Shown in pieces: positions 7,406 to 50,023 of a DNA stretch of 64,000 nucleotides. Each line of letters begins with the position of its first letter. Within the stretch, counting starts at the first letter, position 1. Source of the DNA: Candidatus Omnitrophota bacterium (GTDB lineage Bacteria; Omnitrophota; Gorgyraeia; Zapsychrales; Zapsychraceae). Location: assembly GCA_020429915.1 (NCBI GenBank), contig JAGQKV010000012.1, positions 65,737 to 129,736 of the forward strand, given 5' to 3'. The notes under the pieces were generated by a model. It saw only the letters and a program-made list of their open reading frames with translations, had not been told where the DNA came from and ran no database searches. The translations under genes were made by a program, and so were the position numbers.

Positions 7406-8470
7406 CTACAATAAACCGACGACCTTCTGAACGGCCTGTTCGATCACACTCATACAAAATTGATATTCACTCCGGTCCCGTCCGATCGGATCCGGAATAT
7501 CGAGGTCCGCCAAAAGACTGCCCGGCTCGGCGGCAAATTCTTTCAGCAAATACACACGCTTTTCAACTTCCGGCATCCTTTCTAAAACCTGTTGGCGATG
7601 GGCCCGGGTCATGACAAAAATGAGGTCCGCCTTGCGCAGAAGGATGGTATTAATCGGCTGTGACAGATGCCCGCTGGCATCGATGCCTTTTTCCCCCAAA
7701 ACCATCAGCGTGTCCGCGCTCGCCTTGGCCTGCAGGAAGACACTGGTTCCCGCCGAGCAGACTTCAATGTGCGGTTTATCCCGCACCAAGTGTTGCAAAA
7801 GGTAATGAGCCATAACCGACCGGCAGCTGTTGCCGGTACACACGAACAAAATAGTTTTCAGCCCGCCCATTTTTTGAATCTCTGCCGCCGGGATCACACC
7901 TTCGCGCAGGACCTTCGGCTGATCCGAGGTAACATCCACCACCGTTGACCCGTGGCCGTATTGAGTCTCACCACCGTCAATCGCCAAATCCACTTGTCCG
8001 TCCAAGTCGACCAAGGCCTCCTGCAACGTGCGCGGCGCCGGTTTTCCTTCCAGATTTGCAGACGGAACAGCCACCGGAGTCTGGACCTCGGCAACCAAGC
8101 GGCGGGCGATCTCATGGTTCGGGACCCGCACGCCGACGGTGCGCCCCGGATCGCGGGCTTCGACGACAACGGTCAACGGGCCGGGCCAAAACCGGTCAAT
8201 GAATTTGTAAAGCAACGTCTTCTGGGAACGTGTGTAATTGGAAATGAGCTCCGGTTGGGAAATCATGATCGTCAGCGGCTTGTCCGGAGCGCGGTTTTTG
8301 ACCTTACGCAGACGGGCAACGGCATCGGGATTGGCAAAATCGGCGGCTATTCCGTAAACTGTTTCGGTCGGGAACACGACCAGACCGCCATTACGGATGA
8401 CCGACGCCCCTCTGAAAATCGCGGCCGGTTCGGGAAACTCGGGATGTAAGGTGAGTATTTCTGTCTTCAA
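7406..8470 (-). CDS. tsaC: L-threonylcarbamoyladenylate synthase (TsaC/YwlC) fused to a low-molecular-weight protein tyrosine/arginine phosphatase (YwlE-like)
   Basis: N-terminal YrdC/Sua5 fold (VVFPTETVYGIAAD). C-terminal CTGNSCRS P-loop characteristic of LMW-PTPs. Confidence 0.85.
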   Translation of the reverse strand: MKTEILTLHPEFPEPAAIFRGASVIRNGGLVVFPTETVYGIAADFANPDAVARLRKVKNRAPDKPLTIMISQPELISNYTRSQKTLLYKFIDRFWPGPLTVVVEARDPGRTVGVRVPNHEIARRLVAEVQTPVAVPSANLEGKPAPRTLQEALVDLDGQVDLAIDGGETQYGHGSTVVDVTSDQPKVLREGVIPAAEIQKMGGLKTILFVCTGNSCRSVMAHYLLQHLVRDKPHIEVCSAGTSVFLQAKASADTLMVLGEKGIDASGHLSQPINTILLRKADLIFVMTRAHRQQVLERMPEVEKRVYLLKEFAAEPGSLLADLDIPDPIGRDRSEYQFCMSVIEQAVQKVVGLL

Positions 8471-8485
8471 CGCAACCTTATCGTT

Positions 8486-9781
8486 CTAACGTTTCTGGCT
8501 GGGCTGCTCCATGTGGATGAAGGCCTTGGCGCCGATATCCCTGCGGAAAAAGCACTTATCGAACTTAATCTGCTCGACCGCGGCATAAGACTGGTCAATG
8601 GCCTTTTGCAGATTGGCTCCCAACGAAGTGACCCCCAGGACCCTTCCACCGTTGGTCACCACCTTGCCGTCGACAAGCTTGGTGCCGGCATGAAAAACGA
8701 CGGTCTTGTCGTGCCCGTTAAAAGCATCCAGTCCGGTGATCTCAAAACCGTTCTTATATTCACCCGGATATCCTCCGGAACTCATCACGACGCACACGCA
8801 GGCCCGGTTGTCCCAGTCGAGTTCGAATTCGTTCAGCCGTTCCTCACAACTGGCCAAAAGCACCGGCACCAGGTCATTCTTCAACCTGGGCAGGACCACC
8901 TGCGCTTCGGGATCACCGAAGCGCACGTTGTATTCAAGAACATAGGCCCCCTGCTTGGTGATCATCAACCCGACGTACAAAATTCCCTTGAAAGGCGCGC
9001 CTTCGCGGTTCATGCCGCGAATGGTGGGCTCAATAATGCGCGCTTCGATCTTGTTGAGCAATTCCCGTTTGATTATCGGCGCCGGGGAATAGGCCCCCAT
9101 CCCTCCCGTGTTGGGCCCCATATCGTCGTCGAAAATCCGCTTGTGGTCCTGGGATGAGGCCAGCATCACATAATCCTGCCCGTCGCAAATCGCCAGCAAC
9201 GAAGCCTCTTCGCCTTCGAGACATTCCTCGACGACGACCTTGTTTCCGGCTTCCTTGAAGACCTTATCCTGCATGATTTGCTCAAGGGCCTTATGGGCCT
9301 GGGCGATATCTTCACAAATAATCACACCTTTGCCGGCGGCCAGTCCGTCGGCCTTGATAACGAGCGGATACTCGGCACGTTCGGTATAATCGACGGCTTC
9401 ATGATAATTGTCGAAAGTTTTGAAGGAAGCCGTCGGAATATTGCACTTGTGCATAAATTCCTTGGCGAAAACCTTACTGCCTTCCAACAGGGCGGCGGAC
9501 TTGGTGGGACCGAAAATCTTCAGACCGCTGGCCGTGAAGTAATCGACGATCCCCTTTACCAGCGGGGCCTCCGGACCGACGATCGTCAGATCAATGCGTT
9601 TTTGGGAGGCGAAATCAAGCAGGCCTTCAATATCGTCCGCCGGGATATCAACGCACTCGGCCAAACCGGCAATCCCGCCGTTTCCCGGGGCGCAATAAAT
9701 CTCTTTGACCAGCGGACTTTGCTTGATCTTCCAGGCCAGAACATGCTCGCGGCCTCCGGAACCGATGATGAGTATTTTCAT
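8486..9781 (-). CDS. purD: Phosphoribosylamine--glycine ligase
   Basis: MKILIIGSGGREHVLAWKI ATP-grasp PurD. Confidence 0.95.
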   Translation of the reverse strand: MKILIIGSGGREHVLAWKIKQSPLVKEIYCAPGNGGIAGLAECVDIPADDIEGLLDFASQKRIDLTIVGPEAPLVKGIVDYFTASGLKIFGPTKSAALLEGSKVFAKEFMHKCNIPTASFKTFDNYHEAVDYTERAEYPLVIKADGLAAGKGVIICEDIAQAHKALEQIMQDKVFKEAGNKVVVEECLEGEEASLLAICDGQDYVMLASSQDHKRIFDDDMGPNTGGMGAYSPAPIIKRELLNKIEARIIEPTIRGMNREGAPFKGILYVGLMITKQGAYVLEYNVRFGDPEAQVVLPRLKNDLVPVLLASCEERLNEFELDWDNRACVCVVMSSGGYPGEYKNGFEITGLDAFNGHDKTVVFHAGTKLVDGKVVTNGGRVLGVTSLGANLQKAIDQSYAAVEQIKFDKCFFRRDIGAKAFIHMEQPSQKR

Positions 9782-18817: not shown

Positions 18818-19291
18818 TCAGCGGGATAGGATGAGTTCGCCTTGCCTGATTTTTTCCGAATCGAGGGCAGCCTCATCTGTGGCGAAGGTCACTCCCGTGA
18901 CGGTCAGCGTCCGGTCACGGTCCGAAACGCCATCCTCAAGCGCGGTGAAATACAGGGTGAGCAGGTCGCCGGATTCAGCGTTTAAAGGGAATAGTCCGAT
19001 CAGGGCAATCTTCACTACATCAGGGCCGTCTTCACGGCTTTCCACGAGCTGAAATTGACTAACGGAACCGCCCTTTTCGATACGGTCGAGCCGGAAGGCA
19101 CCGGCATCGAAGGTAAAAGCGAGATCGACGGCAAAGACATCGGCAAGCGTGTTTTCCCTGAAGTTAATGGTCACGCTCGCCTGTTCGCCACGGTGCAACC
19201 GGGCGTCGGTAACGTTGACTTCCAGGGCATGCACAGCGGTCGCGGACAAGACAGCGGCCAAGGTGAGTAGCATCGTGAGTTGTCGGATCAT
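18818..19291 (-). CDS. Secreted single-domain cohesin-like protein
   Basis: Signal peptide MIRQLTMLLTLAAVLSATAVHA with AAAGGA RBS. The mature part (VNVTDARLHRGEQASVTINF...ADVFAVDLAFTFDAGAFRLDRIEKGG...VVKIALIGLF) follows the strand pattern of type-I cohesin modules. The track ORF is extended upstream to 19357. Confidence 0.5.
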   Translation of the reverse strand: MIRQLTMLLTLAAVLSATAVHALEVNVTDARLHRGEQASVTINFRENTLADVFAVDLAFTFDAGAFRLDRIEKGGSVSQFQLVESREDGPDVVKIALIGLFPLNAESGDLLTLYFTALEDGVSDRDRTLTVTGVTFATDEAALDSEKIRQGELILSR

Positions 19292-35418: not shown

Positions 35419-36564
35419 TTAACGGCCGGCTAAATGTTCGATGTCCCCGGCGGCACATCCGATCGGCCCCTCGATGATCGCACCGCCAAGCACAACATCA
35501 TTCCGGTAAAAGACGACCGACTGCCCGGGCGTCACCGATTGCTGCGGTTCGTCGAAGTCGACGCGGATGCGGTCGGCCTCCAGACAGGTCAGGCGCGCGG
35601 GAATTTCCGGGGCATTGTAACGGATACGCGCACTCACCGCCACGGTCTCCCGGGGGACGTCCATGCTGACCGGATTAAAGTTTTCGGCAAACAGGCCCTT
35701 GGCATACAAATGTTCCCGCGGGCCGACATGCACCGTGTTGGATTCCTTGTCGATCCTATACACATAGACCGGTTCACCCAGCGCGATCCCGAGTTTATCG
35801 CGCTGTCCGATGGTGTAATTGATGATTCCTTTGTGACGGCCGACGACCTTGCCGTCGGCGCCGACAAAATCCCCGGGAACAAACACGCCGTCACCCAACC
35901 GTTGCCGGATAAACTCCTTGTATCCCGCATCCGGAACAAAACAGATATCCTGGCTCTCCGGCTTGTCGGCCGTGTTCAGCGCATACCGCTCCGCCAATTG
36001 ACGCACTTCGGCCTTGGTCAGATCCCCCAACGGGAACAGGACTCGCGACAACGTTTCCTTTTTCATGCTGTACAGAAAGTAAGACTGACACTTCCGCTGG
36101 TCTTCGGCCTTTTTCATCTCATAGCAGTCACGCGCCCGGTTGTAGTGGATCTTGGCATAATGTCCCGTCGCCAGGCAGTCCGCGCCGAGGCTCATGACTT
36201 TCCGGTATAGTGTGCCGAATTTCAGGAATTGGTTGCAGCGCACACACGGATTCGGGGTCCGGCCGTTGATGTACTCGTCGGTAAAATTGTCGATGATGTG
36301 CTCATTGATATCCTTGGCAAAATCCAGGACATAATGCGGGATATCGAGAATCTGCGCGGCACGTTTGGCATCCTGGATGCCGTCGACCCCGCAGCAGGAA
36401 GGCTTCTTGCTGTCCGGATGCGTAATGCTGAAGCACATCGTCACGCCGACGACATCATAGCCCTGCTCCTTCATCAGCGCGGCCACCACAGACGAATCCA
36501 CCCCGCCGCTCATCGCCACGAAGACCTTCTTGTCCTTGTTGACTTCTCTATTAATATTCACCAT
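35419..36564 (-). CDS. mnmA: tRNA-specific 2-thiouridylase MnmA
   Basis: VFVAMSGGVDSSVVAALM PP-loop and MnmA C-terminal domains. Confidence 0.95.
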   Translation of the reverse strand: MVNINREVNKDKKVFVAMSGGVDSSVVAALMKEQGYDVVGVTMCFSITHPDSKKPSCCGVDGIQDAKRAAQILDIPHYVLDFAKDINEHIIDNFTDEYINGRTPNPCVRCNQFLKFGTLYRKVMSLGADCLATGHYAKIHYNRARDCYEMKKAEDQRKCQSYFLYSMKKETLSRVLFPLGDLTKAEVRQLAERYALNTADKPESQDICFVPDAGYKEFIRQRLGDGVFVPGDFVGADGKVVGRHKGIINYTIGQRDKLGIALGEPVYVYRIDKESNTVHVGPREHLYAKGLFAENFNPVSMDVPRETVAVSARIRYNAPEIPARLTCLEADRIRVDFDEPQQSVTPGQSVVFYRNDVVLGGAIIEGPIGCAAGDIEHLAGR

Positions 36565-38617
36565 ATTCGTTTTCTGTCACTTCATCAATCGCCTGATAAG
36601 CCGCTGTTAACAGCCGGTCGATCTCCGCCCGGCTCACGGAAAGCGGCGGCATCAGGACGATCACATTGCCCAACGGACGCAGGATCACACCGTGCCGGCG
36701 CGCGGCGCGGCAGACCCTTACTCCGACTTGCCGCTCCCACGGAATGGACTTTTTTGTCTGCCGGTCGGCCACCAGCTCAATGCCGACCATGAACCCCTTC
36801 TGTCTGACGTCGCCTACAGAACGTAGATTATAAAACACCCGCAAGCCCTTGCTCAAGTGTTTTATTTTGGCCCCCAGCCGCTGCAAAACCCTTTCTTTTT
36901 CAAAGACTTCGAGATTCGCCAGCGCGGCGGCGCAACACAGTGGATTGCCGGTATAAGTATGCCCGTGAAAGAGCGTCTTCTGGTCCCGGTAGTCGGCCAC
37001 AAAACCGTCGTAAATCTTTTGACTGACTATAGTTGCGGCTAAAGGCAGATAGCCTCCCGTAATCCCCTTGGCCAGGCACATGATGTCCGGGACCACCCCT
37101 TCATGCTGACAGGCAAACATCCGGCCGGTCCGCCCAAAACCGGTTGCCACTTCGTCGGTTATGAGAATAACCCCGTATTCGTCACAGAGCTCCCGAAACC
37201 GGCGGAGTATTCCCTCCGGCCACACGATCATCCCGGCCGCCCCCTGGACCAACGGCTCCACGATCAGCGCGGCCGTACGGTCGTGGAACTTCTTGAGATG
37301 CTGTTCGAACCTGTCCACACATTCAAACGCGTAGGCGGGATATTCCTTGCCGGCCGGGGCCCGGTAACAATCGGGAAAGTCCAGCCGGACCGTTTTAAAG
37401 ATCAGTTTGCGGTAAACCCGGTGAAACAAATCGATGCCGCCGACGCTGACGCTGCCGAGGGTATCGCCGTGATAGGAATTTGCCAGATGCACCAGATCGG
37501 TCTTGCGGGGGCATCCCGTATTCTGCCAATACTGATAGGCCATCTTGAGGGCCACTTCCACGGCGGTCGAACCGTTGTCCGAGTAAAACACCTTATCCAG
37601 ACCGGGCGGGGTGATCTCAACCAGTTTGCGGGCGAGTTGCACGGCGGGCGCATTGGTGAGACCCAAAAGTGTGGAATGCGCCACACGATCGATCTGTTCC
37701 TTGAGCGCGCGATCGATTACAGGTTGGCGGTGACCGTGCACGGTAACCCACAGGCTGGAGATCCCGTCCAAATAGCGGTTGCCGTCGGTGTCGATCAGCT
37801 CGTTGCCGTCTGCCCGGTCGATGACCAAAGGCTCGTCGGCGACCCAATCGCGCATCTGGGTAAACGGATGCCAGATATGCGCCTTATCCAGGCGTTGCAG
37901 ACGGGCCGTCCGGGAAACCCGGCGCGGCCGGCACAGCTTCTTCAGATGGAGATGCTCCCGGCACGCCGCCGTCATCTTCCCGGGATCCTGCGACGCCAGG
38001 TACGGTATGCTGCCCAAGATAGGGACATCGCCGAACTTCCCGATGGCCGCCGGATTGGTCTCGTGGGCAATGGTCGGCTGTTCCCGACACGGCTGATTGA
38101 AAACCACACCGGCAATCTCCAATCCGTATTGATGTGCGCACTGTATGGTCATCAGGGTGTGATTGATCGTCCCCAGACCCGGCAACGCCACGATGACAAT
38201 CCGCGCGTTTAGCTCCCGCGCCAGATCGGCCATCAAATAGTCTTTCGCCAGCGGAACCAACAGCCCCCCCGCCCCCTCGATCAATACGGCTTCATGCCGT
38301 CCTCTGATCTTCTCAAACGCGGCGTTGATTGTCTGCGGCCGGATGATCCGCTTCTGACGTTTGAACGCAATATGCGGCGACAAGGGTTCGGGCGCAAAAT
38401 AGGGATTGATCTCATCCAGCGAATCCGCCACAGCGAGCCCCGACTTCAGACGGGCCGCGTCATCCCCGGCGCATTGCACCGGTTTGAACACGCCGACATC
38501 GACCCCTTGTTCCTGCAGGAGACGCCCCAGGCACAACGTGGCCACGGTCTTGCCGACATCGGTCCCCGTCCCGGTGATAAAAAGATCGCCGATCTGCCGG
38601 CCGAAATCAACCTTCAC
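36551..38617 (-). CDS. bioDA: Bifunctional dethiobiotin synthetase / adenosylmethionine-8-amino-7-oxononanoate aminotransferase (BioD-BioA fusion)
   Basis: N-terminal BioD P-loop FITGTGTDVGKT. C-terminal class-III aminotransferase with ...LAKGITGGYLPL. The probable GTG start at 38617 overlaps the bioC stop (GTGA). The track ORF is extended upstream to 38716. Confidence 0.85.
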   Translation of the reverse strand: MKVDFGRQIGDLFITGTGTDVGKTVATLCLGRLLQEQGVDVGVFKPVQCAGDDAARLKSGLAVADSLDEINPYFAPEPLSPHIAFKRQKRIIRPQTINAAFEKIRGRHEAVLIEGAGGLLVPLAKDYLMADLARELNARIVIVALPGLGTINHTLMTIQCAHQYGLEIAGVVFNQPCREQPTIAHETNPAAIGKFGDVPILGSIPYLASQDPGKMTAACREHLHLKKLCRPRRVSRTARLQRLDKAHIWHPFTQMRDWVADEPLVIDRADGNELIDTDGNRYLDGISSLWVTVHGHRQPVIDRALKEQIDRVAHSTLLGLTNAPAVQLARKLVEITPPGLDKVFYSDNGSTAVEVALKMAYQYWQNTGCPRKTDLVHLANSYHGDTLGSVSVGGIDLFHRVYRKLIFKTVRLDFPDCYRAPAGKEYPAYAFECVDRFEQHLKKFHDRTAALIVEPLVQGAAGMIVWPEGILRRFRELCDEYGVILITDEVATGFGRTGRMFACQHEGVVPDIMCLAKGITGGYLPLAATIVSQKIYDGFVADYRDQKTLFHGHTYTGNPLCCAAALANLEVFEKERVLQRLGAKIKHLSKGLRVFYNLRSVGDVRQKGFMVGIELVADRQTKKSIPWERQVGVRVCRAARRHGVILRPLGNVIVLMPPLSVSRAEIDRLLTAAYQAIDEVTENEYGEY

Positions 38618-39402
38618 CGGCGGGTCCCTTCCAGCCAAATCACACAGAACGTCGCGGTAACGCCGAAACGGTCTGTAAAATGCCGGCGGTAATAATCGCC
38701 GGCGCGCCCAAGCCATTCCTTGCCCAACGCCACCTCGGGATTAAGGACGTTCGCCCCGATCTCCTTGGTCCAACGCAATAACGCCAGCAAATCGGGAAAA
38801 TGGACTTTGATGATCTCTTCGCTGATCTGGATCTCCGAGAATCCGGCCTCACCGGCATACCGCGTGACATCCTCGAGACGGGGAAGTCGGCGAAAGGCGC
38901 GCACCTGGCGGCCCGCCGGGGCGGTTTCTTCGAGGGAGCGAAACATCTCGCCGAAGGTGTCGTAACCGAACAGGGTGATGTAAATCTTTCCGCCATCTCT
39001 CAAAATATCCCGGTTGCCGCGCAGAGCCGCGGGCAGGTCTTCGATCCACTGGTAAGCCAGGTTCGACACGAGCACATCAAAAGAACCGGGCTTAAAGGGA
39101 AGCACACGGGCGTCAGCCTGCACGACGGTAAACTCCGCCCACTTTTTCTGCGCCTCCTGAAGCATTCCGCTGGCAAAATCCAGCCCGACGATCTGCGCCT
39201 CGGGCAAATAGAATCCCAGCCGGTTGGTCAACCAACCCGTACCCATACCGACGTCAAGGATCCGGTCGACACCTTCATTGTCGATCACCTTGCGGCTCAA
39301 CTCACGGCCGATCTCCTTGTGCAGACTGGCCAGGGCCTCGTATTGGGCGGCGGCATCCGAAAAAGACGCACGGATGCGGCGGCTGATGGCATTAAGTATC
39401 AT
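38614..39402 (-). CDS. bioC: Malonyl-[ACP] O-methyltransferase BioC
   Basis: SAM-MTase motif ILDVGMGTG. Sits in the bio cluster between bioH and bioDA. Confidence 0.85.
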   Translation of the reverse strand: MILNAISRRIRASFSDAAAQYEALASLHKEIGRELSRKVIDNEGVDRILDVGMGTGWLTNRLGFYLPEAQIVGLDFASGMLQEAQKKWAEFTVVQADARVLPFKPGSFDVLVSNLAYQWIEDLPAALRGNRDILRDGGKIYITLFGYDTFGEMFRSLEETAPAGRQVRAFRRLPRLEDVTRYAGEAGFSEIQISEEIIKVHFPDLLALLRWTKEIGANVLNPEVALGKEWLGRAGDYYRRHFTDRFGVTATFCVIWLEGTRR

Positions 39403-43704: not shown

Positions 43705-44649
43705 ATGCGTTCCAAGCTATATCTCACATTATTTGCCGCCCTTGCACTGGCCGGGTATCTCAGCCGATTCGGCTTCTGGTTCGATCTGACCACGCATTTT
43801 CAGCCGCAGTATCTGATCGGATTGTTGGCCTGCGCCGGATTCTGCGCCTGGCAACGGCGCTGGAGGACCATGGCCGTGGCTGTCATCTGCGCGGCGATCC
43901 CTTTAAGCCGGATCCTTCCTTTATATATGCCGCTCACCCGCACCGCCCATGCCGGCCCCGCATCCACGCTTTCCCTACTGCTGGTCAATATCAAGGCCGA
44001 GAACCGTCAGTTTGAGAAGCTGCGCGCCTACATCCGGGAGTCCGATCCGGACATTATCGCGCTGGAAGAGTTCAATGAACTTTGGCACAATGAACTTTCG
44101 CCGGTATTGAAGGATTACCCGTACACCATTCATGAATTCAGAGCAGACAATTTCGGCATCGGATTATACAGCCGTCTGCCGGTCGAGAATCTCAAGATCA
44201 AGCGCTTTAGCGATGTTCCCAGTATCTCAGGAGACTTGACCGTCAACGGCCGGCCGCTCACGGTCCTGGTGACACATCCCATCCCGCCGGTCCGTCCGAG
44301 CGCCTTCCGCTACCGCAACCGGCACTTCGCCAACATGGCGGCCGCCCGCGGGGAGTATCACGATAACCTTGTGCTCATCGGCGACTTGAACTCGTCGTCC
44401 TGGTCGTATTTCTTCCAGAAACTGGCCGCGGATATGGGCCTGCGCGACTCACGCGAGGGGTTCGGCCTGCAGTTTTCCTGGCCGACGATGACGGCCTTGC
44501 TGCTGACCACCATTGATCATGCCCTGGTCAGTGATAATATCGTTGTTAATGAAAGGCGTATCGGGAAGGACATCGGATCGGATCACTTTCCGGTGTATCT
44601 TGAGATCGGGGTCAGCGGTCCGCGGGCGGTTACTCCGTCAGCCAACTGA
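43705..44649 (+). CDS. Endonuclease/exonuclease/phosphatase (EEP) family membrane protein
   Basis: 2-3 N-terminal TM helices and EEP motifs (LLLVNIKAEN...LIGDLNSS...SDHFPV). Confidence 0.8.
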   Translation: MRSKLYLTLFAALALAGYLSRFGFWFDLTTHFQPQYLIGLLACAGFCAWQRRWRTMAVAVICAAIPLSRILPLYMPLTRTAHAGPASTLSLLLVNIKAENRQFEKLRAYIRESDPDIIALEEFNELWHNELSPVLKDYPYTIHEFRADNFGIGLYSRLPVENLKIKRFSDVPSISGDLTVNGRPLTVLVTHPIPPVRPSAFRYRNRHFANMAAARGEYHDNLVLIGDLNSSSWSYFFQKLAADMGLRDSREGFGLQFSWPTMTALLLTTIDHALVSDNIVVNERRIGKDIGSDHFPVYLEIGVSGPRAVTPSAN

Positions 44650-47600
44650 TCTGGTCCGCGGATTCCGCAGGCACAACCTCCGGCTCCGGCCCGCCGGCCA
44701 GTGAGTCGCCATTAATCCCGCCGCCGAGTATCAACGGCAGATTAAGAACCGGACTGATATTGATGATGACCGGCACGAAACCGTTTACCGGGACCGTCTG
44801 CAATTCCTGCAACTCCGCGGGCACGTTCATCTGAATCACATCCCCGCTGCTGTGCAATTCCATATTCCCCGCGTTGAGATCGATCCCACCGACCGGACGG
44901 CTCAGCACCGCACGGTCCGTGGACTGCTCACCCTGTTGCACGGCCGTCTCCTGTGCATCCGGCCGGACTCCGAGAATATTGCGCGCGTATTCCAGCTGAT
45001 TGGTAGGGATAATGATGGTCGTGTTGGCCTGAAGGTCTTCGGGTCGGCGAATACCGTTACGGTCCATGATCCGCTGGTAGAGGGGCCGGTTGAAAATGCC
45101 GTCCCATTCCGCCAACGGCGTGGGTGACCCGTCGGCCTGGATACCGTAAAAACGCTGCGCGATGAGTTCCAGACGGTCGCCCGGCTGCACACTATAAGCC
45201 ACCTCCAACCCGCCGGGTACTATCAGCGACACGTTCTGTGGAAGATAGTAAAAGCCGCGCACGGCATTGTAATCGGCGGGATCGGGAAGCGGATCAAGGT
45301 CGAGTTCACTCGCATTTGCACTGTGAATCTCCGGATAGGCAAAATAATTGTCGAAGTAAAGCTTCGCGATACCGCTGAGCGTGCCCATGGCGGCACCCCG
45401 ACGTGTGATAAACCCTTCCACGTCGCTGACGCCGGTGATGTGCACATCCGGCCGCGCCGAATAGTCCATCAACGGCTCGATCAGCGGGACAAGATCACGG
45501 AAGACATCCGGGGGAATGAGTATGGACGGTTCATCCAGATAGCGCGGCAACGCATTGAGCGGAGGCACCGGGCCCTGTTCGGTCACTAGGGGCTCACTGT
45601 CGTTCTCCGCCCCATCCAAGTCACCGCCGGGATTATGGCGCGAATAGATATACGGCGTTATCAACAACGCCGCCACCAACGTGATGATAAGCGTTGCCTC
45701 CGTCACGTCGGAGAAACCGGCACGCGTCACACCGGCTTCGGTCGCGGCAAGTTCAACCGCGGCCGCTTCCGATGCACCGGATTGCGCGGCAAAGACCGGG
45801 GCGTAAGGTTTTCCCCGTTTCTGCAGCGCCAGCACCTCGTCCAAAATGTCGGCAGCCATAGCCTTCAATTCCGCAGCCGACAGCGCCAACGCCGCATCCA
45901 TCAGGTCGGCATTGCTGTCCAGCAACCTGTTATTGAGATCAAAGTCATCGACGCCTAATCGTTGCGCGAAAAGATTGAGGATATTACCGGTGGCCTGTCC
46001 GTAGATCACGGCGTTCTGTCCGGCAAACAACGCGGCCAATCCGCTGTTCAGGGAAATGTGCAGTTCAATGACCTTGACCAAATCGGTGTAAGGCGCGTCT
46101 CCGTACGCGATGCTGGACAGATACGCCGTGGTTTCCTGGGCAATGCGGCGGCCGGCGCCGTAATAGCGGTTCTGCACTCCGTTAAGCTCGTCGCGCGTGT
46201 GCTGACGTTCATGGATCCCGGTGGAGGCGTGACGGCTGCGAAGGATAGCCTCAATCTGATCCGCCCCCGGAAAGCGCGGGTAATCCCGCTGCACTCCCCG
46301 GCGAATCAGCTCACTGAGCCGGTGAATCCCGCGCCCGCCGTAGGTGCGAAACGGCCTCTCAAACAGATGCGGCAGCACGTCGCTGTACGTTTCGCCGTCA
46401 ATTATATCCTTCAACACCACACCGAAGGTATCGCCGTTCCAGGTGAAACCCAAGGCCGCAATATCTTCGTCGACGCGGTCGATCCGCTGTCCCAGGTAAT
46501 AGATTTCCGGCAATGCCCCGCGGCGATTGCGCGGCCCGTCCGTATCGATCTCAATCGCGTCGATCCGGAAGGCCTGGCTCGACAGGATAGATACATTTTG
46601 CTGCGAGCCGTCGGAGAAATTCTGGGTCCGCTCCAACACTTCCAATTGAACGTACACCATCTGTTCCTTGAGAAACGGATTGTTGCGTAAATCACGGGCC
46701 AAATCTTCAATCAACGCCCGGTTGCGGCGTACATTGGCGCTGTAACCGCGCAATCCCTTGCCGATGAGCGACGGACTGAAGCTCCGTTGCAGCAACCGGG
46801 AAAAGATTTTCTCGACACTGGAATCGAGCAGACCCGCACCGCGACGGGTCAGCCGCAGCATGTCGGTCGTCGCGACCTCATGGGCCGAGGCCATCAGCAG
46901 TTGCGGCAGCACTTCCGAGAAAAAGATCATCGTCCGCAGCGACGGGTCCTTGGTCTCGGCCATGGCCTCGACCGCTGGCTGCATTCTGTCCAGATACTGA
47001 CGGGAGGTGACTTCGAGCGGCACGAAAATAGCTTGTTCGGGTTCGCGGCGATCGTCCCGCCGGGTACTCTCCCGCTCGAAACCGAAGGAAATGTCGCGCT
47101 CCCCGCTGGCCGCGTCTTCTCCCTGGGAATAGGCGGATGACGAATCCCCCACCCCAAACGTCCGCTTCGTTGACTCCCGTTCGCCCAACAGCTCGCGTGC
47201 GTGGACCATTATCTGCTCTTTGGTCCGCTCCCGTTCCCGAGCCGCCCGCGCTTCCTCTTCTTCGCGCTCGGTACGGGTACTTGTTCCGCCGGTCGTGCGC
47301 CTATCCGATTCAGGCACCTGAACGATGTATTGCGACCAATCGATCTCTTCGGTTTCCGCTGCCTGCAGCTTGACGCCAAGCTCGGGTGATATCGCGTCGA
47401 AAAGAGCGACGATCTCGTCGACCGTTTCCGGCGTGTATGTCCCGGCAAACTCCGCTTGTTCACGTAATTGCGGCCGGCCGTAGATAAATTCCAGAATGGC
47501 GGTCACCCGTTGGGGAAGATTGGCTTCGAAACGCAGGCTGCGCTTACCGGGCTCTTCAATATCCGCCAGCCGTTCCAATTGACGGATCAGGCCGGCCAAT

Positions 47601-49783
47601 GTCTGAATCCCCCGGTCCTGGCGGAGTTCGCGATAGTAGTCGCCGCGCGACCGTCGCGCGATTTCCTTCCACTCAGGAGCATGATCTTCTCCGAGATATT
47701 TCTGAGTACGCGGGCCGTTGTGAACGTCGACCTTATCGCGCATGATTTGAAGGATTTGAACCACTTGTTTGAGCAGCTGCGGATTGTTACGGACAAACGG
47801 ACTCGCTTCCCGCAAGCGGTCGGCGAGAATTTCGTCCAGCAGACTTCCGGAGCGCATCATTTCCCATGCCATGTTCAGCGAGTTATCGTACGTGCCGCGG
47901 AAGATCCCCAACAGGTCGACGGTCAGGACAGCCGCCTCACCGTCACGCCCCAACCCCAAAGTAAAAGGCGCTACCGTATTGACGGCCAACCGGATATCGG
48001 TCTGCCCCCAGCCACTGACGTCATCACCGTTGGAATCCAGGAAACTTTTCAGCGAGTCGAGCGCATGCCGGACCAGGGCCGCATACACTTCATCGTCGAG
48101 TTCGCGCAGCTGTCCCAGAATCTCGGTCAACAACTCACGGCGGCGGTTACCGTCGCGGGGGATGCTTTGCAACCGTCCGGCGAGCGCCTCAAACACGCGG
48201 CGCTGTTTGTAGCCGTATTTGTCGGTCCTGATCCGATAACCGGCCAGCGTATCCAGCAACGGTTTCAAGGCGGCCAGCTTCTCGGAACTGCGACCCGCCT
48301 CGCCCAGTTCTTCCAGCGATCGGCGCAGGGCCTGCGCAGACGCCCGCAGCCCCTCTTCACCGCCCGGCACGTTTAATTCACGTTCGGGAAATCCGATCCC
48401 AAAGACATAACCGCGGTCGTCATCTACCTCAATTTCAGTGCGTTCTTCCGAACCTTCCACCGCCACGGTCGCCTTACGAAACTGGCGATACCGGATACCG
48501 TCCATCACCACTTCATAACTGCCGAAATGGTACGTATCGTAAAAAGGCAGGACCGCACGGTCGCTCAGACGACCGACTCTGTCAAAGGCGATATCCTCTG
48601 CGCCGGCCGTCCCCCGCCCGCGCAGACCGGTGTTGACCGACAGAATCTTTCCCTGGGGCACGATCTGAGCTGCCACGCTCCCGGGTTCGATTTCCCTGAT
48701 TTGCTGCGGGAGTTTGGAATGGTTCACGCCTCCGGAGAAGTACTTCTTGGGGATAATCTCATCGAGCTGTGGATCGTATTCCTCCTTGATATAGCTGTAC
48801 ACCCCTTCTTTAAAGGCCGTCACGTATTGTTCGTAAATCTTCCGGTTAATCTCGCGGTCCGCTACGTCCACTCCGTCGACACGGTTCTTGTCGACATAGA
48901 CCCGGCTCAGGAAGCTCTCGCGCAGGTTCTTCTTGTACCACGTGGCCAGGATCATGGAATGGTAAATCTGCCGCAAGTTGGAGAATGTCCGGCCGTTGTT
49001 GACCTCGCGTTCGATCTCGGGAATAAGGATCTCCCGGACGATTTGGGAGGACACCTCGGACAAGACATTGGTGTCGCCTGGTTTTTCGGCGGAATGATGT
49101 TCCAGGGCGAGGTAATCCTCCTCCAACATGACTTTCAGCCGGCTGTTGACGACATACACCGTCTGTCCCTGCACGACCACATCGGCCGTCTCCGGAACGA
49201 TCCAGATCTTATTATAGGTGTTGACCGGGACGTCGGTGGTCCCGAACTCAGTCTGGGCCCGTTGATAAACACGGTCCCAAAACTTCTTTCCCAACTCATC
49301 TTCGGGATAGATCATGGAAGCCGTCAGCTGTTTGAGCAGATAGTCCTGCGCCAACAGATCACGCCCCATTTCCGTCCGGCCGAATTCATCCGGAATGATC
49401 CGGTCCCGCTCGAACGGCGACAGGTTGACCCACATCTTGTCTTCCGAGACCGTCAACGCAGCCAGGAAATACTTAATGAGGCGGGTTGACTCGCGCTGCA
49501 AGTCGACTCCGTCCAAATCCTGTTCACCGGTATCGATCAGAAAGTCAAACTGAAGAGGATTGTCCGCATCAATGGTCACCCCGCGTATGATGGCGGGATG
49601 AAAGTCGGGGGTGACATACAACATCGTACCCGGCTCGGGCAAATCAAGGACAGTCGCGGGCTGTGCCGCAAAGGAAGACCCCGGGACCAGTCCGGTATTG
49701 ACAGCCAAAACGCAGGCCATAAATGCCCGGAGGAAACGGCTCCAGACGGTCATGTTCGCATTGTTTCTATGCATAGTTGTCAT
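44630..49783 (-). CDS. Giant multidomain protein of unknown function (about 1700 aa) with a signal peptide, one late TM helix and a LysM-like C-terminal region
   Basis: Continuous 1730-codon ORF. A probable Met start at 49783 or 49753 precedes the SP-like RAFMACVLAVNTGLVPGSSFAAQPA. An E/R-rich low-complexity block lies in the middle. A TM helix appears at about aa 1370 (TLIITLVAALLITPYIY). The C-terminal region is LysM-like (YSVQPGDRLELIAQRFYG). Confidence 0.75.
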   Translation of the reverse strand: MTTMHRNNANMTVWSRFLRAFMACVLAVNTGLVPGSSFAAQPATVLDLPEPGTMLYVTPDFHPAIIRGVTIDADNPLQFDFLIDTGEQDLDGVDLQRESTRLIKYFLAALTVSEDKMWVNLSPFERDRIIPDEFGRTEMGRDLLAQDYLLKQLTASMIYPEDELGKKFWDRVYQRAQTEFGTTDVPVNTYNKIWIVPETADVVVQGQTVYVVNSRLKVMLEEDYLALEHHSAEKPGDTNVLSEVSSQIVREILIPEIEREVNNGRTFSNLRQIYHSMILATWYKKNLRESFLSRVYVDKNRVDGVDVADREINRKIYEQYVTAFKEGVYSYIKEEYDPQLDEIIPKKYFSGGVNHSKLPQQIREIEPGSVAAQIVPQGKILSVNTGLRGRGTAGAEDIAFDRVGRLSDRAVLPFYDTYHFGSYEVVMDGIRYRQFRKATVAVEGSEERTEIEVDDDRGYVFGIGFPERELNVPGGEEGLRASAQALRRSLEELGEAGRSSEKLAALKPLLDTLAGYRIRTDKYGYKQRRVFEALAGRLQSIPRDGNRRRELLTEILGQLRELDDEVYAALVRHALDSLKSFLDSNGDDVSGWGQTDIRLAVNTVAPFTLGLGRDGEAAVLTVDLLGIFRGTYDNSLNMAWEMMRSGSLLDEILADRLREASPFVRNNPQLLKQVVQILQIMRDKVDVHNGPRTQKYLGEDHAPEWKEIARRSRGDYYRELRQDRGIQTLAGLIRQLERLADIEEPGKRSLRFEANLPQRVTAILEFIYGRPQLREQAEFAGTYTPETVDEIVALFDAISPELGVKLQAAETEEIDWSQYIVQVPESDRRTTGGTSTRTEREEEEARAARERERTKEQIMVHARELLGERESTKRTFGVGDSSSAYSQGEDAASGERDISFGFERESTRRDDRREPEQAIFVPLEVTSRQYLDRMQPAVEAMAETKDPSLRTMIFFSEVLPQLLMASAHEVATTDMLRLTRRGAGLLDSSVEKIFSRLLQRSFSPSLIGKGLRGYSANVRRNRALIEDLARDLRNNPFLKEQMVYVQLEVLERTQNFSDGSQQNVSILSSQAFRIDAIEIDTDGPRNRRGALPEIYYLGQRIDRVDEDIAALGFTWNGDTFGVVLKDIIDGETYSDVLPHLFERPFRTYGGRGIHRLSELIRRGVQRDYPRFPGADQIEAILRSRHASTGIHERQHTRDELNGVQNRYYGAGRRIAQETTAYLSSIAYGDAPYTDLVKVIELHISLNSGLAALFAGQNAVIYGQATGNILNLFAQRLGVDDFDLNNRLLDSNADLMDAALALSAAELKAMAADILDEVLALQKRGKPYAPVFAAQSGASEAAAVELAATEAGVTRAGFSDVTEATLIITLVAALLITPYIYSRHNPGGDLDGAENDSEPLVTEQGPVPPLNALPRYLDEPSILIPPDVFRDLVPLIEPLMDYSARPDVHITGVSDVEGFITRRGAAMGTLSGIAKLYFDNYFAYPEIHSANASELDLDPLPDPADYNAVRGFYYLPQNVSLIVPGGLEVAYSVQPGDRLELIAQRFYGIQADGSPTPLAEWDGIFNRPLYQRIMDRNGIRRPEDLQANTTIIIPTNQLEYARNILGVRPDAQETAVQQGEQSTDRAVLSRPVGGIDLNAGNMELHSSGDVIQMNVPAELQELQTVPVNGFVPVIINISPVLNLPLILGGGINGDSLAGGPEPEVVPAESADQISWLTE

Positions 49784-50023
49784 CAGGACGTCTTGATTGG
49801 GGCTATATAGTTTAGCACACAACGGTTTGGGTCACCAGCGCCGCCTGCGGGCGCGCGACATCCTGTAAATATATGCTATGGATAACTTTATGCATCAATC
49901 ATAAAGATAGTTGAGTATGAACTGATGACGACCGACGATCCGCGCCGCCGCATCGCTATATATAATATCGAATTAATATTAATAAAAATAAGCTTCCGCG
50001 GCAAATATGTGCGGCTTAATAAA

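Follow-up and report, generated by a model that had tools for sequence, protein, structure and literature searches.

Proteins of the RHS family with SpvB/TcdB-type architecture that are Sec-exported and have no visible TcA or type VI secretion system (T6SS) partner are common in environmental bacteria, as seen among the 120 best homologs of the protein considered here, and to our knowledge it is not understood how such proteins are held, aimed or released. This question is raised by a locus in a 64,000-nucleotide stretch of DNA (the window) on contig JAGQKV010000012.1 of an uncultured Candidatus Omnitrophota bacterium, a member of a phylum suspected of predatory or parasitic lifestyles. In the window, an RHS cocoon toxin carries a dockerin—one half of the connector used in cellulosomes—in a loop of its shell, and the last gene of the same operon encodes a small secreted protein for which a preliminary description of this DNA proposed the other half, a cohesin. 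Is this protein a genuine cohesin, is the dockerin of the toxin its partner, and what might such a pair do? Comparison of sequences and predicted structures suggests that a cellulosome connector has probably been reused here to hold or mount a toxin. Four features define the two partners:

18818..19291, minus strand: stand-alone cohesin gene, 157 aa (open reading frame, Pfam Cohesin, AlphaFold2 model and Foldseek)
19223..19291, minus strand: Sec signal peptide of the cohesin, aa 1-23, MIRQLTMLLTLAAVLSATAVHA/LEV (read by eye; not a lipoprotein)
20472..26876, minus strand: TcB/TcC-type RHS cocoon toxin, 2134 aa (Pfam domains and closest solved chains)
22470..22694, minus strand: 75-aa insertion in the YD-shell loop of the toxin, aa 1395-1469, with a type-I dockerin at aa 1402-1464 (Pfam, motif scan and flank mapping)

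The minus-strand open reading frame at 18818-19291 yields the 157-aa protein quoted in the preliminary description, and the interval is correct; a plus-strand reading is ruled out by stop codons throughout its translation. An NCBI metagenome-assembled genome (locus tag KC900_07700) has an annotated protein identical to the 157-aa product. The ATG at 19291 has a Shine-Dalgarno-like, purine-rich GGGGGAAAGGA about 8 nt upstream and is matched by a start at the same Met in six of seven aligned orthologs (P0004 being called 18 residues longer). An alternative ATG at 19357, which would give 179 aa, is unlikely because it falls inside the 3′ end of the upstream gene. The small-x-Ala/LE junction that ends the signal peptide, an Ala-x-Ala-type site, is kept in all eight aligned sequences, and the AlphaFold2 model places an N-terminal helix (aa 2-15) ahead of a beta-sandwich. 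The mature protein (aa 24-157; 14.7 kDa, isoelectric point 4.4, no Cys) has only 134 aa and so has room for one domain and nothing else: it is secreted, has a single cohesin and no other module, and can be called a stand-alone cohesin.

Pfam PF00963 matches the protein with E=7.2e-6 and 26.7 bits (gathering cut-off 24.1) over profile positions 2-123 of 139, and the same family is precomputed for all eight close homologs. A phmmer search against PDB sequences gave no significant match (an enoyl-CoA hydratase came first at E=0.37, and the true cohesin 5lxv reached only E=0.75), so that a comparison of folds was needed. A first AlphaFold2 model, built from eight close orthologs, had a predicted local distance difference test (pLDDT) score of 62, and even this model had only cohesins as PDB neighbours. 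When 1.8 billion representatives were searched with a family profile, 68 matches resulted, and a model from a 23-sequence alignment drawn from them reached a pLDDT of 89.8 and a predicted template modelling score (pTM) of 0.80. With this final model, all 50 of the 50 best PDB matches listed by Foldseek were cohesins, with E down to 5.8e-9 and template modelling (TM) scores up to 0.76, and the model has the nine-stranded beta-sandwich (jelly-roll) of solved cohesins. On this predicted structure the 157-aa protein is a genuine cohesin module and its fold can be taken as settled, which bears out the preliminary description of a secreted single-cohesin protein, together with the fold prediction on which that description was to stand or fall. 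Its further label of 'type-I' is not established: E-values and TM scores are much alike for cohesins of type I (2vn5, 4dh2, 1aoh), type II (1tyj, 2y3n) and type III (5lxv, 5n5p) and for those from outside cellulosomes (2xdh, 2vo8). Among the Foldseek matches are also 2xdh from Archaeoglobus (non-cellulosomal), 2vo8 and 2jh2 from Clostridium perfringens and 4n2o from R. flavefaciens.

A cohesin-like beta-sandwich might nevertheless bind no dockerin and serve as a glycan-binding, structural envelope, accessory or immunity factor. Many non-cellulosomal cohesin-like modules are said to have no demonstrated partner, and the protein is only 12-19% identical to the characterised cohesins among its Foldseek matches, scores just 2.6 bits over the Pfam cut-off and, as noted, finds no significant match among PDB sequences. 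Against this stand the company that the family keeps and the behaviour of the gene. The family profile retrieves genuine multi-cohesin proteins (Pfam Cohesin E down to 1e-75), some of them with dockerins, and the nearest larger relatives are these and surface proteins in which Ig, cadherin and PKD repeats abound; a dockerin is encoded in the same operon and again beside a distant homolog (locus L004, below); and, unlike immunity genes, the cohesin gene does not change along with the toxin tip. We therefore regard a non-binding role as very improbable.

The candidate partner is the RHS protein, whose Pfam domains run in the order signal peptide, SpvB, TcdB_midN, FG-GAP propeller, YD shell, RHS core (with a DPSGHG core motif at aa 1830) and variable C-terminal toxin. 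Its closest solved chains are TcdB2-TccC3 (4o9x), and signal-peptide-like N-termini are conserved in the protein and its orthologs. These domains and the variable C-terminus are those of a Tc BC component and of an RHS polymorphic toxin. The preliminary description had it bearing a dockerin, and it does: Pfam PF00404 (Dockerin_1) matches aa 1402-1456 with E=1.8e-9 and 38 bits (cut-off 22.9), covering profile positions 1-55 of 57. A motif scan found two Ca-loop repeats, DVSGDGRITAIDAS and DTSADGLVTSIDAS, whose loops (D-V-S-G-D-G-R-I-T-A-I-D and D-T-S-A-D-G-L-V-T-S-I-D) lie 34 aa apart. Both repeats have D/S/D/T/D at Ca-ligand positions 1/3/5/9/12, as type-I dockerins do, and share the helix start IDAS-x-(I/A)-(A/V)-R.

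Dockerins are usually terminal, whereas this one is internal, lying between aa 1394 and aa 1470 of the shell. When the conserved flanks (aa 1330-1394 and 1470-1560) were placed on the best 120 RHS homologs, both mapped in 22, and in 17 of these the site is a loop of 1-10 aa. Three other homologs carry long inserts there (P0079, 464 aa; P0088, 445 aa; P0080, 1197 aa), that of P0080 consisting of four fn3 domains, a Laminin_G_3 lectin and a GH115_C beta-sandwich. Judged from these alignments, the shell loop is an insertion hot-spot; and as inserts of 445-1197 aa are too big for the interior of a cocoon, the loop would have to face outward, so that the dockerin presumably points away from the shell on a site suited to display. 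With a tolerance of 1 to about 1200 residues of binding modules, this loop shows at which point an RHS cocoon can be decorated, knowledge of use in targeting studies and in the engineering of Tc/RHS delivery vehicles.

A dockerin in this loop occurs, among the best 120 homologs, only in P0076 and P0077, to which the ortholog at locus L001 can be added; within that set of homologs it is confined to this narrow Omnitrophota clade. The distant RHS homolog P0093 has a faint Dockerin_1 match amid Ca-binding FG-GAP repeats, which we do not accept as genuine; the called genes of its 9-kb contig have no recorded cohesin family, although the last of them, cut by the contig end, was not searched. The distant homologs P0123, P0133 and P0140 have a weak dockerin-like module (GDLNEDGRLDAADALIAERI...) at about aa 1840-1900, more C-terminal and after a hydrophobic stretch.

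The end of the RHS protein is a further feature:

20475..21377, minus strand: polymorphic C-terminal region of the toxin, aa 1834-2134 (a glycine-zipper hydrophobic stretch and then the toxin tip; weak Gly-zipper matches)

Alignment of the protein stops at aa 1834 against P0077 and the protein of locus L013, and at aa 1933 against that of L001, the tips being unrelated beyond these points. Up to aa 1834 the orthologous RHS genes have 74-78% identity. Such a C-terminal swap just past the RHS core motif is the classic polymorphic-toxin pattern. As to the tips themselves, that of the window has, besides its glycine-zipper stretch, a His...Asn-Cys motif and no family match, and those of L013 (3-1304) and L001 (6616-8277) resemble alpha/beta-hydrolases.

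The two partners are encoded 3.2 kb apart in one operon of four minus-strand genes, running from the RHS gene through a 166-aa secreted protein and a TPR lipoprotein to the cohesin, which is the last gene and the third downstream of RHS. The remaining features of this unit are:

19345..19944, minus strand: TPR lipoprotein, 199 aa, lipobox LLLAG/C (TPR_12 E=1.2e-5, below the Pfam cut-off)
19975..20475, minus strand: 166-aa secreted protein with an N-terminal signal-like sequence (open reading frame; ATGA overlap with RHS)
26970..26997, minus strand: candidate operon promoter TTGACA-16-TATAAT (12/12 to the sigma-70 consensus, about 94 nt upstream of the RHS ATG)

The shared strand and tight gene string of the preliminary description hold up: the RHS stop and the start of the 166-aa gene overlap by 4 nt (ATGA), which couples the two translationally, 30 nt separate that gene from the TPR lipoprotein and 53 nt separate the latter from the cohesin. 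A convergent polyprenyl synthase gene, ending 48 nt past the cohesin stop, closes the unit. The promoter-like site is the sole 12/12 sigma-70 match in a 10-kb scan; it is a consensus match only, with no evidence of function. Hidden Markov models of each family found no second cohesin in the window (the protein itself E=1e-80, next best E=2.2) and no second dockerin (RHS E=1.5e-36, next best E=3.1). A cellulosome would have a multi-cohesin scaffoldin and several dockerin enzymes; the 64 kb hold one single-module cohesin and one dockerin.

Two labels given earlier to the intervening genes fare less well. The lipoprotein had been called 'Sel1' and matches TPR models, not Sel1, while the 166-aa gene had been called 'immunity', which is doubtful: its product is 33% identical to a 171-aa protein of L001 despite the different toxin tip there, and neither L013 nor L015 gave a detectable counterpart. 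Nothing in Pfam or NCBIfam scored above cut-off for the 166-aa protein, the TPR lipoprotein or the toxin tip. At L001 a different gene, for a 123-aa lipoprotein (8280-8651), directly follows RHS; a homologous fragment is found at L015 (930-1106) and nothing similar in the window. This lipoprotein is a better immunity candidate for the toxin type of L001 than the 166/171-aa protein.

Is the association of toxin and cohesin kept elsewhere? Relatives are scarce, with only eight close homologs of the cohesin and seven of the TPR lipoprotein in 5.8 billion proteins; four of these seven are on contigs whose lengths equal those of contigs with a cohesin homolog. Pattern scans of GTDB genomes with alignments A1 and A4 found no relatives, and in JGI metagenomes A1 gave nothing and A4 only a 1.9-kb contig identical to P0010 (a distant cohesin, below). 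The most complete counterpart is L001, where the cohesin is 57% identical: an RHS gene with loop dockerin is followed by the 123- and 171-aa genes, lipoprotein, cohesin and convergent polyprenyl synthase (the RHS gene is split by frameshifts in this 2x assembly). The contig of L013 begins inside the RHS C-terminus and continues with lipoprotein and cohesin, and L002 and L015 have lipoprotein and cohesin at contig ends. From the same sample as L002 comes L010, with the dockerin-bearing RHS protein P0077 at a contig end, and the two probably form a fourth RHS-cohesin locus. Co-occurrence, which the preliminary description had proposed as a check, is thus seen as a cohesin after RHS in the window, L001 and L013, and as a distant cohesin that adjoins a dockerin protein.

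Across these orthologous loci, identity to the window is 62-78% for the RHS shell, 62-76% for the dockerin, 63-88% (tblastn) for the TPR lipoprotein and 54-68% for the cohesin. The lipoprotein, the best-conserved accessory gene, lies directly upstream of the cohesin in L001, L002, L013 and L015, and the small genes after RHS differ between loci. Since dockerin, lipoprotein and cohesin are kept as tips and immunity genes vary, the former look like constant equipment and the latter like exchangeable cargo.

A pairing independent of RHS comes from P0010, a stand-alone cohesin of 159 aa that is 34% identical to that of the window and is encoded 38 nt downstream of a dockerin-bearing protein. The neighbour is a 1567-aa secreted esterase/lipase-like protein (Palm_thioest and DUF676 matches) with a C-terminal Dockerin_1. 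The arrangement is seen on two informative contigs, L004 (3227-8447) and L006, from a metagenome unrelated to the window; contigs with four other homologs (P0012, P0014, P0025 and P0030) were just 0.7-1.4 kb long and uninformative. The L004 dockerin aligns ungapped with that of the RHS protein, with 28 of 63 positions identical (44%) and the DAS-x-(I/A)AR signature in both. Because the P0010 cohesin thus adjoins an RHS-type dockerin on another carrier, the cohesin and dockerin subfamilies would appear to travel together while the carrier protein differs. The same dockerin subtype lies in the same polypeptide in nine of 67 cohesin-profile matches.

Two observations on these distant loci may be added. 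Fatty-acid synthesis genes come after the L004 cohesin. At L003 (707-7055), a stand-alone cohesin (P0009, 36% identical) is followed by a PEP-CTERM protein, by an orphan cassette of an RHS C-terminus with Tox-MPTase3, by an HNH protein and by another remnant of an RHS core; on the upstream side, where a main RHS gene would be expected, the contig ends before reaching one.

What, then, might the pair do? We hold it moderately probable, from gene content and conservation, that cohesin and dockerin form an in-operon cognate pair that tethers, mounts or caps the RHS toxin. One operon would supply both the RHS protein and the cohesin, each with a signal peptide of its own for Sec export; in the envelope or outside the cell, where Ca is present, the two EF-hand-like dockerin repeats would fold and bind the cohesin. 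Lacking any anchor, the cohesin could serve as a bridge between the cocoon and the co-conserved TPR lipoprotein, which would fix the toxin to the envelope of its producer, or else as a cap or shuttle for the dockerin up to the point at which the cocoon docks elsewhere. The constant mounting or delivery part would then consist of dockerin, TPR lipoprotein and cohesin, and tip and immunity genes would be a cargo exchanged between strains. Physical binding, the role of the lipoprotein and the cellular location are points that we infer.

Several observations weigh against such a cognate pair or its details. The RHS-linked examples are all syntenic orthologs at one chromosomal position (polyprenyl synthase 80-94% identical), so that their co-occurrence is partly phylogenetic inertia and not independent replication, and the one independent pairing recovered, that of L004/L006, has a partner that is not RHS. 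A tether in particular is weakened by the lack of a TPR lipoprotein at L004 and L003, and the mature cohesin has neither an anchoring module nor a linker. Export would also require a cocoon of about 230 kDa to cross an outer membrane. Finally, other dockerin-rich proteins, including giant proteins with many dockerins, have been reported from Omnitrophota (PMC10066038; bioRxiv 10.1101/2023.11.21.568195), which leaves room for different or further partners of the cohesin.

The last of these points, taken with the synteny of the RHS-linked loci, would allow the true partner to be another dockerin protein in the genome, for example a dockerin-rich giant adhesin, with the position after RHS merely inherited. 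We think this improbable, since the distribution of the loop dockerin is very narrow and is shared by the cohesin, their genes are packed tightly on one strand behind a single strong promoter-like site, and the pair is retained while adjacent cargo and immunity genes turn over; moreover, the distant cohesin homolog again adjoins a dockerin of the same subtype.

If the partner is the RHS dockerin, the cohesin might still act without any TPR tether, as a soluble cap or shuttle that masks the dockerin or keeps the cocoon monomeric and soluble until it is handed over to a cohesin-bearing surface scaffold encoded elsewhere. The mature protein is, after all, a bare cohesin that lacks anchor, linker and Cys, the L004 pair manages without a TPR lipoprotein, and among the nearest relatives of the cohesin are surface proteins with several cohesins or with both a cohesin and a dockerin. 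The structural match 4n2o is itself a stand-alone cohesin, and such a cohesin has been proposed, in the citing passages of PMC12484212 and PMC12270676, as a shuttle for dockerin-bearing components (a 'molecular shuttle' in Voronov-Goldman 2015 FEBS Lett, as cited in PMC12484212). No scaffold-type cohesin protein is found in the 64-kb window, however, and the TPR lipoprotein, equally narrow in distribution, always adjoins the cohesin, which suggests that the two work together. We consider a soluble cap or shuttle of this kind unlikely, and we return to the mounted cognate pair in comparing the locus with known systems.

Cohesin-dockerin pairs outside cellulosomes are well known, and those of C. 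perfringens reportedly assemble secreted toxins into complexes. Cellulosomal type-I pairs, such as that of C. thermocellum CipA (1ohz), resemble ours in the beta-sandwich of the cohesin (TM 0.63-0.70 to 1ohz, 1aoh and 1anu), in the duplicated 22-residue design of Ca-loop plus helix in the dockerin and in the secretion of both partners. They differ in that we find here no multi-cohesin scaffoldin, carbohydrate-active enzymes or carbohydrate-binding module, and no anchor of the SLH or sortase kind. Moreover, our pair belongs to an Omnitrophota bacterium where theirs have cellulolytic Firmicutes as hosts, its dockerin is inserted within a loop of the 2134-aa RHS shell instead of standing at a terminus, and its cohesin is a single module on its own. 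The C. perfringens GH33/GH84C cohesins (2vo8, 2jh2 and 2w1n, titled in the PDB as cohesin modules of Clostridium perfringens glycoside hydrolases) share the non-cellulosomal context and rank with the best structural matches, 2vo8 having TMt 0.76. Their modules are, however, terminal on glycoside hydrolases, whereas here an RHS cocoon with polymorphic cargo meets a separate small cohesin.

The R. flavefaciens protein 4n2o, which we take to be the small secreted protein CohG, is likewise a cohesin in its own right, a likeness that is architectural only (identity 10-11%). It belongs to a full cellulosome with many partners, whereas the window cohesin is operon-linked to one dockerin carrier and a TPR lipoprotein. 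With the Tc toxin TcB-TcC (4o9x) and T6SS Rhs effectors, the toxin shares the RHS domain order and a C-terminal toxin swapped after the core motif; unlike them, it has a loop dockerin and an operon cohesin, its export appears Sec-dependent, and no PAAR, VgrG or TcA gene was seen, the last being absent from the operon and from the large open reading frames scanned in the 64 kb.

The nearest precedents combine similar modules in other ways. Rhs-repeat regions occur in ScaO and ScaP, unconventional scaffoldins from Acetivibrio cellulolyticus and Clostridium alkalicellulosi that bear cohesins and dockerins, and in dockerin-bearing 'RhsA' proteins of A. cellulolyticus (PMC6780208, PMC3413522). In these, however, cohesin, dockerin, peptidase and Rhs modules share one polypeptide within a cellulosome system and are not described as toxins, the dockerin is not in a shell loop, and their descriptions mention no single cohesin as a separate partner. 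Cohesin and dockerin are also listed among the domains of PT-TG polymorphic toxins (PMC13483458), and Omnitrophota dockerins have already been noted (PMC10066038). The preliminary description had seen no such pair described for an RHS toxin, and this holds in part: Rhs modules are already catalogued in cohesin/dockerin proteins and the stand-alone cohesin is known from 4n2o, but our literature search found no description of a TcB/TcC-type RHS cocoon with a shell-loop dockerin, of an operon-encoded single cohesin for an RHS toxin or of the loop hot-spot.

Were the binding true, RHS cocoons would have, in addition to TcA docking and T6SS spike loading, a third way of being mounted, and cohesin-dockerin biology would extend to toxin deployment in a diderm candidate phylum. 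More tentatively, and with real doubt, one might suppose that, in BC-type RHS cocoons without TcA or T6SS, one loop of the shell is a site of mounting or targeting that can be exchanged, in which case loop dockerin, free cohesin and TPR lipoprotein would here be a three-part envelope-mounted launcher for interchangeable toxins. The case rests on genomic inference and its reach is limited by the very narrow distribution of the cohesin and the lipoprotein; it will be of interest to specialists on RHS/Tc proteins and on cellulosomes.

The remaining genes of the window are housekeeping genes, for purine and biotin synthesis, PGI and a transporter. Amid them lies a 1730-aa open reading frame (44630-49822, minus strand) with no Pfam match at E<=1e-5 and no NCBIfam match at E<=0.1. 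A 721-aa protein (36551-38716, minus strand) is an apparent fusion of an AAA_26/CbiA-type domain, read as a BioD-like dethiobiotin synthetase, and a class-III aminotransferase, read as BioA-like.

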